Source: a virus (lineage: Duplodnaviria; Heunggongvirae; Uroviricota; Caudoviricetes). Taken from it: a stretch of 14,983 nucleotides of DNA. The stretch lies in IMG/VR virus record IMGVR_UViG_2529292981_000041. The stretch is one strand, 5' to 3'. Shown piece after piece: positions 5,731-13,399 of the stretch. The position numbers and the translations under genes were made by a program. Numbering within the stretch: the stretch's first letter is position 1; every line of letters begins with the position of its first letter. The notes below the pieces were generated by a model. It was not told the DNA's origin. It was given only the letters and a program-made list of their open reading frames with translations, and made no database searches.

Positions 5731-6288
5731 TCACACCCCCGCTAAATCCGCCCACCAGCGGCGATTATCCGCACGAGGCATTTTTTCAGGGTGCTGCTCA
5801 TACAGGGAACGGCGGGCCAGCTCCACGCCAGAATCAGGGTAAGCCGGTACGGATGTCACGGTAATTTCGTACAGTTCCGCTATCAGTACAGTACGCACAC
5901 ATGGATCGACTGTCGTATCCCATACATCCTTACGGGAACGAAAGCCAAAGCTCATGCCCGAGATGTCACCACGTTTAACCAGTTCGATAACGTCCCGCCC
6001 TGTGCTGGTATCCGGTGGGATCAGTTCAAAACGTAACCCTGTGTCATCCTCTTCCAGTCTCAGCGTACCGGAACGGGTGCGCCCCAGTAACATGCTGTGG
6101 TCATGCTCATACAGGCCGCGAACGTCATTACCCACCGCAAGCCATTCAGTAAACGCCCCCCGCTGGAATTTTTCGTAAAACTCCCCCCATAGCAGCTCTG
6201 AAAGGTTATCCCAGCGAACAACGTAGCCTGTAAGCGTGTTGCTGCCGCTGGTGGTGATTTCCGATGACCGGATTTCCATACTCATCAT
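5731..6288 (-). CDS. Prohead maturation protease, HK97 family (S78-like)
   Basis: 185 aa; motifs GYVVRWDN, GLYEHDHSMLLGRT and ISGMSFGF are characteristic of HK97-type prohead proteases. Confidence 0.85.
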   Translation of the reverse strand: MMSMEIRSSEITTSGSNTLTGYVVRWDNLSELLWGEFYEKFQRGAFTEWLAVGNDVRGLYEHDHSMLLGRTRSGTLRLEEDDTGLRFELIPPDTSTGRDVIELVKRGDISGMSFGFRSRKDVWDTTVDPCVRTVLIAELYEITVTSVPAYPDSGVELARRSLYEQHPEKMPRADNRRWWADLAGV

Positions 6289-6311
6289 AATTTTTTCACC
6301 TGTAAAACAGA

Positions 6312-6333
6312 GAAGGGGCTTTTTAGCCCCTTC
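6312..6333 (-). terminator. Perfect 9-bp GC-rich hairpin 10 nt after the capsid gene stop (possible partial terminator)
   Basis: gaaggggct-tttt-agccccttc. On the minus strand it is followed by tctgtttta, then the protease start. Confidence 0.45.
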
Positions 6334-6342
6334 GGTGTGCTG

Positions 6343-7500
6343 TTAATCGTCGTCCTGCGGCAGTTCCAGAATCTTTATAGCGTTCGAATCCACCACGCCA
6401 CCGCCTAAATATTTCTGCGTGAAAATTTTGATAAAGCCCGGCTCTGTCAGGTTGTCCGGTCTGGTGCGCACGCCCGTTTCATGATCAACGATGTAATAAC
6501 CGCGTTTGAAGTCACCCAGGGCGATAACGTTATCCGGCATAAATTCCAGATACTCCACCGGAAGCCCCAGCAACGTATCAGGATCACCCGCCTGTAAACG
6601 GTCGCGCCAGATGTAATCGCCGTTCGCGTTCTTCACCTTCTGAAGTTTTGCCGCCGTCGTGGAGTTAACCACCCAGACCGCGTTTTTGCGGTATTTTTTA
6701 CGTAATGCAAATTTCAGGTCGATCAGCGGGTCCGCAGATGTCCACGCCAGAGATTCGGAAGGTTTAATTACCTGCAACGTACCAAAATCACGCTCTTTGT
6801 CGTTCTTCTCTGCACGGGGTACGGATAAAAAACCTTTTGCTTTTTTGTCACCGTCGCCCACAACCAGATCGCTTTCTTCGGTTTCCGTGAAGGTGTCGCC
6901 AATCTCACCCGTCAGCCATGAAAGGATGTCCACATCGGAAAAATCCACGATTTCCTGTGTGGTGCGCGGGTACGCATAGACCGGATACAGCTTAATGCTC
7001 ACCTCGTTAATCTGCGGGGTGCTGGTCTGTTCGCGTGCCTTACCCTCTTCACCGTGGTTAACGGTCGCACCGCCAGCGGAAACAAGCTGCTTAAACTCGT
7101 TGCTGCTGATTTTCTTCACGGTACAGATGCGGCGCATGGTGGATTCATCCGCCAGCATTCGCATGATTTCGGTGTTCAGCTCGGGGATAACGGTATAACC
7201 ACCATCAGCGGGAACGCCTGTACTTAATGCGCGGGTTTCACCTGTCAGGATGTAGTTGCGTAGTTCTGCGGGGTCAGTGGTCTGACTGCTTTTACCTGGC
7301 TTGCTGCGCTCTTCGTCTGCAATGGCTTCAAGGCGGGAAATGTCTTTATCGAGGGATTCAGCTTTAGCGCGTAATTCGTCAAATTTTGCGCCCTCAGCAT
7401 CGTTAAGACTGCGGTTTTCTTTTTCCGCGTTCTCCAGCATGTCGCGCATCTGATTTTTAATGGCGGTTTTCTGCTGGCGTAATTCGATTATTCTCGGCAT
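6343..7500 (-). CDS. Major capsid protein, HK97 fold, with N-terminal delta (scaffold-like) domain
   Basis: 385 aa; charged, coiled-coil-like first ~110 residues (LRQQKTAIKNQMRDMLENAEKENRSLNDAEGAKFDELRAKAESLDKDISRLEAIADEE) followed by an HK97 MCP-like body. Confidence 0.9.
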   Translation of the reverse strand: MPRIIELRQQKTAIKNQMRDMLENAEKENRSLNDAEGAKFDELRAKAESLDKDISRLEAIADEERSKPGKSSQTTDPAELRNYILTGETRALSTGVPADGGYTVIPELNTEIMRMLADESTMRRICTVKKISSNEFKQLVSAGGATVNHGEEGKAREQTSTPQINEVSIKLYPVYAYPRTTQEIVDFSDVDILSWLTGEIGDTFTETEESDLVVGDGDKKAKGFLSVPRAEKNDKERDFGTLQVIKPSESLAWTSADPLIDLKFALRKKYRKNAVWVVNSTTAAKLQKVKNANGDYIWRDRLQAGDPDTLLGLPVEYLEFMPDNVIALGDFKRGYYIVDHETGVRTRPDNLTEPGFIKIFTQKYLGGGVVDSNAIKILELPQDDD

Positions 7501-8483: not shown

Positions 8484-8731
8484 GCTGTCTGCTCTCCGGT
8501 TTTAACGTTGATGGTTGTTACCTGTTCCGCTTCGGCAATCTCCCGTTCTGTCAACGTGGCAAAGTTTGCCGCTGCTGTGGTCATGAATGCGCTTATCAGG
8601 TCGGGATGTTCCTTCGCGTATCCTTCCCCTACATGTCGGTCTATCGTTCTGATTGCCACCTTTAAGGCCAGCTCTGTTATATCTAACGCTTTATATTTCG
8701 GCTCTGTTCTGTCTCTGCGTGTTCTGGTCAT
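8480..8731 (-). CDS. Hypothetical protein (83 aa), translationally coupled to ssb
   Basis: ATG at 8729-8731 preceded by AGGTGG; ATGA overlap with the ssb start; MTRTRRDRTEPKYKALDITELALKVAIRTIDRH... Confidence 0.55.
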   Translation of the reverse strand: MTRTRRDRTEPKYKALDITELALKVAIRTIDRHVGEGYAKEHPDLISAFMTTAAANFATLTEREIAEAEQVTTINVKTGEQTA

Positions 8732-11961: not shown

Positions 11962-12146
11962 TAATGCACCTCTTTTAATTCATACACTGCTGAAATAATG
12001 ACTTGTGATAAGCCATATTCTGATGATTCGCTTCTCACCGCAGCAATAGCCGTCTGAACATTAACAGCCTTCACATTCTGAGCGATACCAATTGTGTGGC
12101 CTAGTGGGTTAACAGCGCTGGCAAATACACGGAAGGTTTTAAGCAT
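11961..12146 (-). CDS. Hypothetical protein (61 aa from ATG at 12146)
   Basis: ATG preceded by GGGGG; MLKTFRVFASAVNPLGHTIGIAQNVKAVNVQ...; AT-rich. Confidence 0.5.
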   Translation of the reverse strand: MLKTFRVFASAVNPLGHTIGIAQNVKAVNVQTAIAAVRSESSEYGLSQVIISAVYELKEVH

Positions 12147-12411
12147 GGCACACCCCCTGACGAATACGGGCGGCAAATACAGCAACACAACCTGACGGGC
12201 AACGGCTACGCGCTTCGCGTTCCGTCCAGGCGGTTACGTGGATGATTTGAGATTCTCCGGCACTCAGTGCCAGAAAACGCCACACAAAGGCCGTTTGTGT
12301 GTGTACAAGGTGTGGTATATGATTTACAGCAACCATAACGGCTCCTAGTTTACGTTGTTGGTTAGAAGCCCTGCGAGTGGTAACGACACTTGCGGGGCTT
12401 TGTCTTTTCAT
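12139..12411 (-). CDS. Possible first ORF of the leftward early operon (90 aa); could instead be an untranslated leader
   Basis: ATG at 12409-12411 with AAGGT SD, about 23 nt downstream of the predicted transcription start. Ala/Val/Arg-rich composition is not convincing. Confidence 0.3.
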   Translation of the reverse strand: MKRQSPASVVTTRRASNQQRKLGAVMVAVNHIPHLVHTQTAFVWRFLALSAGESQIIHVTAWTEREARSRCPSGCVAVFAARIRQGVCHA

Positions 12412-12428
12412 CGATTACCTTGATAAAG

Positions 12429-12509
12429 GTGTCAGCCACTATATTAGTAACGGGTGTCAGCCACGTCAATAGTGTTTTTCCGTTTTCTTGTGTGTATACT
12501 GTCAGCCAC
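12429..12509. promoter_or_regulatory. Three direct operator-like repeats (G/C)TGTCAGCCAC at 12429-12439, 12454-12464 and 12499-12509
   Basis: The 10-mer TGTCAGCCAC is exact in all three (copies 1 and 2 share the full 11-mer GTGTCAGCCAC). Copies 1 and 2 overlap the leftward promoter (transcription start and -35); copy 3 overlaps the -10 (TATACT, 12495-12500) of the rightward RHH gene. Confidence 0.5.
12441..12469 (-). promoter_or_regulatory. Near-consensus sigma70 promoter driving the leftward early/replication operon
   Basis: Minus strand: TTGACG (plus 12464-12469), 17-nt spacer, TAATAT (plus 12441-12446). Confidence 0.5.
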
Positions 12510-12530
12510 CTAATAACGAGGAAATCAGAT

Positions 12531-12710
12531 ATGGCAACAAAAGCAGTTAATGCAAAATCCAAAAAGCTTGAGGCTCGAGTACCACACGCAATAGCTGATG
12601 CTGTAGAAAATTTAAAGGAAGATGGCGAAAGTACAGGGCAATTTATCGTTTCGGCACTTGAAGGCGAGATCAAACGCCGCCAGCGCCGCAAGGCCAAAGA
12701 ATCAGAATAA
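12531..12710 (+). CDS. Ribbon-helix-helix-type DNA-binding protein, candidate repressor (59 aa)
   Basis: ATG at 12531 with GAGGA SD; MATKAVNAKSKKLEARVPHAIADAVENLKEDGESTGQFIVSALEGEIKRRQRRKAKESE has a strand-helix-helix arrangement typical of Arc/CopG-like proteins. Divergent from the main operon; followed by a plus-strand terminator. Confidence 0.5.
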   Translation: MATKAVNAKSKKLEARVPHAIADAVENLKEDGESTGQFIVSALEGEIKRRQRRKAKESE

Positions 12711-12767
12711 TCACTATCAGCGCCGTGGTGTGAGGTATTACGGCGCATTGCTATGCAGGACAACACA

Positions 12768-12941
12768 ATGACCGATAAAGAATTGACCAAAACATTATCA
12801 CCGGCACGGAAAAGACGGCGCAGAAAGATAGAGCATGAATCAGAAAGATTCGCACCATGTGCTTTTGCCCTTGAGCAATTCCTTAAAGAGTACAGGGAAA
12901 AGCGCTCATTGCAGGTATGGCAACGAACTGAACCAGACTGA
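12768..12941 (+). CDS. Hypothetical small basic protein (57 aa), second gene of the rightward unit
   Basis: ATG at 12768 with AGGA 8 nt upstream; MTDKELTKTLSPARKRRRRKIEHESERF...; the terminator lies about 95 nt downstream. Confidence 0.35.
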   Translation: MTDKELTKTLSPARKRRRRKIEHESERFAPCAFALEQFLKEYREKRSLQVWQRTEPD

Positions 12942-13036
12942 TTGCATTGCCCACCAGCCTGATAGCGGCTATCATCCCCGTGCTTATGTTTGGGATCACA
13001 CACACAAACGGCGCAGCGGGTTATCTGTTCAGAAAG

Positions 13037-13064
13037 GCGGCTCCATTTCGGGGCCGCTTTTTTT
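13037..13064 (+). terminator. Rho-independent terminator of the rightward regulatory unit
   Basis: gcggctcc-atttc-ggggccgc (8-bp stem including one G-U pair) followed by seven T. Confidence 0.55.
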
Positions 13065-13210
13065 ATACCTGAAAAACCCCAATTTTGTTGTTTTTCAGTT
13101 TCACCAGGGCGAACGAATCCCCGCCCACGTTCTGGCGTATATTCAATCTTCATGGTTATAGCTCTGTGTTCAGATGATTGATGTGTGGCGGCTGCGTGCC
13201 GCCAGCGTGA

Positions 13211-13399
13211 TTAATGAACTGCCTTGCAGCTATCCTTCCAGGCCAGAACCTCGGATAAAGACCAGCCAACGGAACGACCGCCAAGTTTACGACGTGATGG
13301 GAATTGTCCGGCCTTTTCCAGGCGGTAGCGACACGTACGGCTAAGGCCGGTTAGTTTTTCGCATTCTTTTTCACGTATAAACCGATCAGTGCTTAACAC
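13211..13399 (-). CDS. alpA: AlpA-family regulator / excisionase-like protein (GTG start)
   Basis: 62 aa; CEKLTGLSRTCRYRLEKAGQFPSRRKLGGRSVGWSLSEVLAW matches the AlpA/Xis helix-turn-helix pattern (TGLSRSTIYR...FP..I.LG.RSV.W...EV..W). GTG at 13397-13399 preceded by a strong AGGGGGG SD. Confidence 0.8.
   Translation of the reverse strand: MLSTDRFIREKECEKLTGLSRTCRYRLEKAGQFPSRRKLGGRSVGWSLSEVLAWKDSCKAVH

Follow-up and report, generated by a model that had tools for sequence, protein, structure and literature searches.

The window analysed here, the 14,983-bp stretch of IMG/VR record IMGVR_UViG_2529292981_000041 (Caudoviricetes), is a close variant of EcCIEDL933, a capsid-forming phage-inducible chromosomal island (cf-PICI) of E. 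coli. At the head of its leftward early operon lies a divergent switch, in which a 59-aa ribbon-helix-helix (RHH) protein probably acts as an autoregulated immunity or maintenance repressor of the early/replication operon, with a specificity exchanged between islands as a cassette. Induction may, more speculatively, occur by transcriptional read-through. In Gram-negative PICIs, AlpA activates its own gene and the genes downstream, while the global repressor has been called ‘unclear’ and the helper switches AlpA on by an unknown route (PMC6092414). Judged from sequence comparison, the RHH protein and its sites are a strong candidate for the repressor believed to be missing from Gram-negative satellites. 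In the literature searched, no paper on this RHH-operator cassette at the head of a replication operon was found. The components of the switch are as follows.

12403-12712, strand not applicable: exchangeable cassette containing promoters, operators and RHH gene, delimited by alignment with the EDL933-type island and other cassette types
12429-12439, + strand: putative operator O1, GTGTCAGCCAC, starting 2 nt downstream of the leftward -10 and covering the predicted leftward start site
12441-12469, - strand: leftward early promoter P_L (-35 TTGACG, 12469-12464; 17-nt spacer; -10 TAATAT, 12446-12441), 9 of 12 consensus matches
12454-12464, + strand: putative operator O2, GTGTCAGCCAC, filling the P_L spacer and touching the -35
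12495-12500, + strand: putative -10 of the rightward RHH promoter, TATACT, with a T-run upstream; read from the sequence and missed by the consensus scan
12499-12509, + strand: putative operator O3, cTGTCAGCCAC, overlapping the last bases of TATACT and the predicted RHH transcript start; putative autoregulation site
12531-12710, + strand: 59-aa RHH gene, YlcI/YnfO family, with a GAGGA Shine-Dalgarno sequence at 12518-12522

Repeats and promoters of the switch

The 10-mer TGTCAGCCAC is present in three exact copies in the window (12430-12439, 12455-12464 and 12500-12509, all on the + strand), compared with an arithmetical expectation of ~0.03 exact copies of a given 10-mer on both strands, and all remaining matches in the window carry two mismatches. 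A repeat search recovered the same family, with spacings of 25 and 45 bp. Copies 1 and 2 extend to GGTGTCAGCCAC and the extended 11-bp form, GTGTCAGCCAC, has the structure GTG-N5-CAC, from which O3 deviates at the first base. The first-pass annotation of this DNA had placed three repeats over the -35 and start of a leftward promoter and over the -10 of the rightward gene, and the exact copies, set against promoter elements read from the sequence or found by a promoter scan, bear this out. The leftward early promoter that it proposed was also found by the scan (TTGACG-17-TAATAT), but ‘near-consensus’ is slightly generous for 9 of 12 matches. For the rightward RHH promoter the consensus promoter scan found no -35. 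TATACT lies 22 nt before GAGGA, which is followed by the RHH ATG at 12531.

A scan of one genome per species yielded 77 loci, with 68 usable for operator-site statistics, all in Enterobacterales satellites. Upstream regions were anchored on the RHH ATG and the 9-mer core of site 3 was scored against the upstream DNA of each. Equivalents of site 3 are kept at -31 from the ATG, those of site 2 at -76/-77 in nearly all 68 loci and those of site 1 at -98 to -111, in either orientation; inversion of site 1 in some loci is expected if the site is pseudo-symmetric. A -35-like TTGA[C/A/G]N accompanies site 2 in ~62/68 loci and GTATAC(T) is found at the site-3 offset in ~60/68, and the Shine-Dalgarno sequence is also conserved. 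The common upstream layout is site 1, an AT-rich -10 region, site 2 abutting (G/T)TCAA (TTGAC on the other strand), a T-run and GTATAC-TG-N5-CAC.

Concerted change of sites and strand residues

The sites vary among loci but agree inside a locus, with 25 different cores and 25 different strand motifs of the RHH protein across the 68 loci. The two best upstream matches to a locus’s own core sum to a mean of 1.1 mismatches, versus 6.06 with cores from loci of other specificity, and sums of ≤2 mismatches were obtained in 88% of self comparisons versus 0.35% of cross comparisons. Particular strand motifs go with particular sites: KSKKLEAR pairs with GTGTCAGCCAC, KSKRFDVR with GTGTCGGACAC, KSQQLNAR with GTGAATCGCAC, KSLQVSVR with GTGAACACCAC and KSQSVTAR with GTGTCTTACAC. 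Operator classes are best separated by residues 12 and 14 (identity 0.98 and 0.94 within classes, 0.12 and 0.07 between them), while R16 is invariant. Residues 12, 14 and 16 were aligned by hhalign with Gln9, Asn11 and Arg13 of Arc, the base-contacting residues in the Arc-operator structure. The RHH protein presumably binds as a dimer and, as an RHH protein, would insert a two-stranded antiparallel sheet into the major groove of the repeated sites; indirect support comes from the tracking of the operator class by residues 12 and 14, the invariance of R16 and the concerted change of the three sites.

Xenorhabdus loci, with AlpA only ~45% identical to that of the window, have GTGTCAGCCAC whenever the RHH strand is KSKKLEAR. 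A query of IMG/VR for pairs of GTGTCAGCCAC sites separated by 10-20 nt returned 20 matches. In 19 of these an RHH gene with the KSKKLEAR strand adjoins the sites at the same offset, and the remaining match is an unrelated iteron array. Several AAAAGGTGTCAGCC repeats within a replication-initiator-like gene of an unrelated high-GC viral contig (L083, 10190-10260) bear a chance resemblance to the operator. In genomes carrying several such satellites, e.g. Xenorhabdus innexi (L013, L027, L029 and L059), RHH/operator specificities differ in 24 of 25 pairs, a trend in the direction of hetero-immunity, although avoidance of the same specificity by co-resident islands was not significant (P = 0.15).

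The 59-aa RHH protein

The orf at 12531-12710 is as first described from the ORF list. Its product matches NCBIfam NF041551 (YlcI/YnfO) with 60.6 bits (cutoff 30), residues 9-50 aligning with profile positions 1-42, as well as phrog_949 and, weakly, the ‘Arc-like’ phrog_7906 (E 0.088). No Pfam match was found at E up to 1, including to PF13132 (DUF3950), no PDB sequence was matched by the family profile at E up to 10, and hhalign against Arc gave a probability of 10%, with no significant sequence match to an RHH profile or solved RHH protein. An AF2 model built on the homologue alignment (pLDDT 88.6) has residues 1-18 extended, followed by helices at 19-28 and 35-58, i.e. the N-terminal beta-strand and two helices within ~45 residues of the RHH superfamily, and is structurally similar to solved RHH domains; Foldseek against the PDB returned non-significant matches only, the best to ParD (E 8.8). 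The 59-aa product is confidently predicted to fold as an RHH protein.

We identified 88 homologues in Enterobacterales, with N7, K9, S10, R16, E33, F38 and E46 invariant and 47-79% identity of the plus-strand product across genera. Substitutions among them at codon positions 1/2/3 number 1073/636/4569, indicating that the plus frame is under purifying selection. A tblastn search of 50,697 phage records with the 59-aa protein gave no match, so at that sensitivity no helper-phage homologue was found. Literature searches on YlcI/YnfO, DUF3950, PICI with ribbon-helix-helix, and EcCIEDL933 or EcCICFT073 with repressor retrieved no functional description.

Exchange of the cassette among E. coli islands

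On either flank of 12403-12712 the EDL933-type island and the window are 100% identical, but inside this interval they are unrelated, the EDL933 type carrying a 43-aa RHH-like orf (weak HicB and RHH_5 matches) and two copies of AGGTGACCAC, the second abutting TTGACA on the minus strand. A third cassette type, found in O145:H28 RM12761 (L102) and several O157:H7 strains, has the same layout, with a 57-aa Arc-like orf and two copies of GGTAATTACCATGT; for the RM12761 type, 90% of the flank query matches, at ~99% identity. The three small RHH-like genes, including that of the window with its three copies of GTGTCAGCCAC, are unrelated to one another, and spans between the flanks are 616, 568, 546 bp and others. 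The AlpA protein (WP_000953272.1) does not differ among the three island types, whereas their repeats are unrelated, indicating that the repeats track the small gene and not AlpA, Pri-Rep or Int. Together with the fixed sites in 68 loci and the behaviour of residues 12 and 14, these swaps support the initial proposal of an autoregulated RHH repressor over the early operon.

Two further cassette types between these flanks, in RM12761 (L102, 740-1000) and in O157:H7 ATCC 35150 (L002, 2403-2680), each have a small RHH-like orf without PGAP annotation and a repeat pair of their own. Neither the window cassette nor that of the EDL933 type is mentioned in the literature searched on EcCIEDL933. EcCICFT073 was sought by coordinates in the CFT073 chromosome, where only a lambdoid prophage and core genes were found.

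Antisense frame, leader and neighbouring genes

The RHH gene is nested antisense within a long leftward open frame between alpA and the early genes. Other features of this region are listed below.

12139-12336, - strand: Icd-like, first early gene (NF033153; phrog_1743/6196/29966)
12362-13153, - strand: open frame of 263 codons, covering the RHH gene in antisense as well as both promoters; positional counterpart of P4 eta
12365-12401, - strand: predicted leader stem-loop of the leftward transcript, followed by invariant UCUAACCA; tail to ~12354
12753-12941, + strand: second rightward orf, 62 aa, basic (57 aa from an ATG at 12768, behind AGGA), matching phrog_21027 only; outside the cassette
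13031-13066, + strand: predicted intrinsic terminator for rightward transcripts, a -21.7 kcal/mol hairpin followed by U7; missed by the consensus terminator scan
13211-13399, - strand: alpA (Phage_AlpA, Pfam PF05930, 5.4e-17), located upstream of the long open frame and early operon, in the same orientation

In a count of stops across the RHH gene in 76 loci, this antisense phase is stop-free in 72, while the two other antisense phases, usually with 1-10 stops, are stop-free in 3 and 0. For the 25 loci in which alpA is nearest (gap of up to 500 nt), the open frame extends to ≤90 nt from the alpA stop in 24, and the other phases never do so. In the window, alpA and the 263-codon frame share a reading frame, and the first in-frame stop upstream of the latter is the alpA stop itself, 500 nt from the RHH stop (13153-13213). 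Apart from its Icd-like end the minus-strand product has no family match, and the part of the frame from alpA to the RHH gene has almost no codon-position bias (627/583/703), suggesting that the frame is kept open while its product is barely conserved. Inside the RHH gene the wobble positions of the two frames coincide, so synonymous-site counts (fractions of 0.67 and 0.61 for the two strands) cannot separate the strands. Pfam searches gave no match for the 263-aa antisense orf, the 62-aa orf, the Icd-like protein or the 59-aa protein.

The Icd-like domain forms the C-terminus of the long frame in many loci. RM12761 has a continuous 314-aa orf ending in this domain, while in the window the frame is split just before the Icd-like gene. 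In EDL933-type islands PGAP calls a hypothetical protein of 247 aa that spans the cassette, and in window-type islands a pseudogene. Comparison with the other loci suggests that an ancestral continuous orf was broken by a frame change within the leader hairpin. The Icd-like frame of the window is open upstream to an ATG at 12411 (12139-12411, - strand, 90 aa), in which case the hairpin would be coding.

Covariation in the leader hairpin was assessed over 53 loci with a 13-pair helix that was specified manually and counted: 87.9% of cells are paired, with compensatory changes in 10 of 13 pairs, versus 27-43% paired in slid controls. RNAalifold run on the leader alignment recovered 6 pairs only, owing to a misaligned bulge. 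The hairpin matches no Rfam family, and Rfam searches of the window, at the gathering threshold and with E up to 5, detected none of the known RNAs at the switch or close to it, C4, isrK and int-alpA included. Possible roles of the hairpin include those of a processing site or a regulatory RNA; alternatively, it may be a remnant or an analogue of the CI/C4 system of P4/P1. Read on the plus strand, it resembles a terminator. Rightward of the RHH gene, the minus strand of 13031-13066 has a weak hairpin and no U-run, and such a one-directional terminator should halt RHH transcripts before alpA and let alpA transcripts pass. The 62-aa orf, which overlaps the N-terminal half of the antisense frame, is identical in the three E. 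coli cassette types and has no homologue in loci of other genera.

Alternative explanations

The most serious alternative, which we nevertheless consider unlikely, is that the RHH protein binds the sites but is not the maintenance repressor, acting instead like P22 Arc in transient or late shut-off of the early operon once induction has occurred, or as a dual regulator that, like Mnt, activates its own weak promoter, with silence of the island mainly due to lack of AlpA. The rightward promoter has no recognisable -35 and may need activation, O3 departs from the GTG consensus, and alpA is necessary for induction of EcCIEDL933 and sufficient for that of EcCICFT073 (PMC6092414; bioRxiv 10.1101/2022.09.08.507074), all of which would fit such a role. 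However, the RHH gene is divergent from the operon that it would control, not the first gene in it as arc is, and O1 and O2 lie on either side of the -10 of a promoter that has a good -35 and an upstream A-tract, the layout expected of a promoter that needs to be held off. We give very little credence to the repeats being bound by another island protein (AlpA as activator/excisionase, Pri-Rep at iterons, integrase at arm sites) with the RHH gene merely adjacent. AlpA-/Xis-type proteins and replication initiators do commonly bind direct repeats, and iterons of AAAAGGTGTCAGCC lie within the rep-like gene of the unrelated viral contig, but islands with identical AlpA have three unrelated repeats, the adjacent early genes are identical in the two types compared, the Xenorhabdus loci keep GTGTCAGCCAC with KSKKLEAR despite their divergent AlpA, and the positions that best track specificity are in the RHH protein. 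As the repeats change with the RHH gene while AlpA stays identical, AlpA, Pri-Rep and Int were rejected as the repeat binder.

Hardly any credence attaches to a type II toxin-antitoxin pair, with the 59-aa protein as antitoxin, the 62-aa orf as toxin and the repeats as autoregulatory operator of the pair only. The 62-aa orf is set apart from the RHH gene by 42-57 nt, lies outside the exchanged cassette, matches an uncharacterised PHROG only, and is absent from loci of other genera, where the end of alpA directly follows the RHH gene; moreover, two of the three sites are over the divergent promoter and not that of the RHH gene. This candidate was rejected, no conserved toxin being found directly downstream and the 62-aa orf matching no known toxin family. 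That the minus-strand orf is the sole real gene and the 59-aa orf a by-product seems very improbable: the openness of the minus-strand frame in most loci and the 247-aa PGAP call would be in its favour, but it is the plus-strand product that is conserved across genera with invariant residues, matches an NCBIfam family above cutoff, is predicted to have an RHH fold and is preceded by a conserved Shine-Dalgarno sequence and -10, while the minus-strand product has no family match beyond its Icd-like end and the alpA-to-RHH part lacks a coding-type substitution pattern.

Comparison with known systems

An autoregulated RHH repressor at this locus would functionally parallel P22 Mnt, SaPI (Staphylococcus aureus pathogenicity island) Stl and the P4 CI RNA, and in the best-supported reading the switch occupies the P4 immunity position. 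The P4 immunity region (vis - eta/kil - P_LE - seqA/CI RNA) has the same position and neighbours: in both elements, downstream of an AlpA/Vis homologue, there is a long open frame with an internal early promoter and an Icd-like/Kil-type domain at its end, with primase-helicase-type replication genes downstream. P4 Eta matches phrog_1743 and phrog_6928; the Icd-like protein of the window shares phrog_1743 (C-terminal part of Eta/Kil), and long orfs of related loci also match phrog_6928. In P4, both P_LE and the CI RNA lie within eta, a gene whose translation reportedly prevents termination (PMC10111431). P4 controls P_LE transcripts by the CI RNA, for which Rfam detects C4 (8420-8507, 74.9 bits) and isrK (8615-8692, 60.8 bits) inside eta, whereas neither the C4 nor the isrK element of P4-type RNA immunity was detected by Rfam in the window or the RHH-bearing loci. 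The window instead has DNA operators and a protein, the putative repressor, at the equivalent place, and a different conserved hairpin in the leader. No RHH-like orf is present on the opposite strand of P4, and BLASTP found no similarity between the extended Icd-like protein (90 aa) and the 137-aa ‘cI’ orf of P4.

Mnt and Arc of P22 immI are RHH repressors of P_ant, but no significant sequence similarity to the window protein was found (hhalign probability 10% against Arc). P22 immI has a 21-bp or 17-bp symmetric operator and the window three 11-bp GTG-N5-CAC sites, and the window switch differs further in belonging to a satellite, not a phage, and in having its gene nested antisense in another open frame. 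Like Stl of SaPI and Rpr of Gram-positive PICIs, the RHH gene is beside int and divergent from the excision-replication operon, and its alleles differ among islands. Stl and Rpr are larger helix-turn-helix proteins inactivated by helper proteins, and are unrelated to the window protein in sequence and fold. Unlike in those systems, AlpA is an additional, demonstrated activator in the window lineage (PMC6092414).

YlcI and YnfO (DUF3950) of the cryptic prophages DLP12 and Qin share with the window protein NF041551, small size, and an RxP strand motif with two helices. K-12 YlcI is, however, only 19% identical and matches Pfam DUF3950 (PF13132) at 1.9e-20, which the window protein does not. The context is also different, as ylcI (L080, E. 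coli K-12 DLP12, 6252-6446) belongs to a lambdoid prophage and is divergent from nohD (Nu1-like terS), with 390 bp of intergenic DNA between the two.

Proposed mechanism

From the anatomy of the locus, the predicted fold, the concerted change and the cassette exchange we infer binding, repression, autoregulation and dimer stoichiometry as follows. The RHH protein, presumably as a dimer, would recognise the 11-bp GTG-N5-CAC sites; at O1 and O2 it would bracket the -10 of P_L and prevent expression of the early operon, i.e. of the Icd-like gene, small orfs, DUF4222, Pri-Rep and genes further on, and at O3 it would limit its own synthesis. The many exchangeable specificities suggest that it acts as an immunity module.

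Induction is more speculative. Helper-activated, AlpA-autoactivated transcription from the alpA promoter may read leftward through the long frame, crossing the RHH gene in antisense and interfering with RHH synthesis; as this transcript passes P_L, the repressor would be bypassed as well as its synthesis disturbed. Translation of the open frame could keep the long transcript from being terminated early, an effect reported for P4 eta. A helper antirepressor lifting repression, as the first-pass annotation envisaged, is also possible.

A broader scenario is offered tentatively. A large group of Enterobacterales phage satellites, cf-PICIs included, may have swapped P4-type CI RNA for RHH repressors with at least 14-25 operator specificities that can be read from residues 12 and 14, the gene being nested antisense, wobble on wobble, in a frame selected for its translation and not its product. 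Transcription activated by the helper and continuing past alpA would then circumvent the repressor and silence it as well, forming a convergent-transcription toggle that might explain AlpA ‘activation’ of Gram-negative PICIs.

Work on cf-PICIs has so far dealt mainly with capsids and tail piracy. The switch provides a candidate for the missing repressor and would allow satellites to be sorted into immunity groups from their DNA alone, and the at least 14 matched protein-operator pairs, differing mainly at two strand residues and five base pairs, would be of use for the study of RHH recognition and for building orthogonal repressors. The nested antisense arrangement, and the putative replacement of RNA immunity by a protein at a P4-equivalent position, are of evolutionary interest.

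Satellite context

Besides int, alpA and pri-rep, the window carries capsid, protease, portal, connector, HNH, terS and terL genes of its own. This gene set, from which tail and lysis genes are absent, is characteristic of a cf-PICI. The order Int(-), AlpA(-), RHH(+), followed by Icd-like/DUF4222/Pri-Rep(-), is kept across genera. In a locus of Escherichia ruysiae (L030, 5461-5529), the Rfam int-alpA RNA (RF02996) lies between int and alpA; the window has no match to it at the gathering score.
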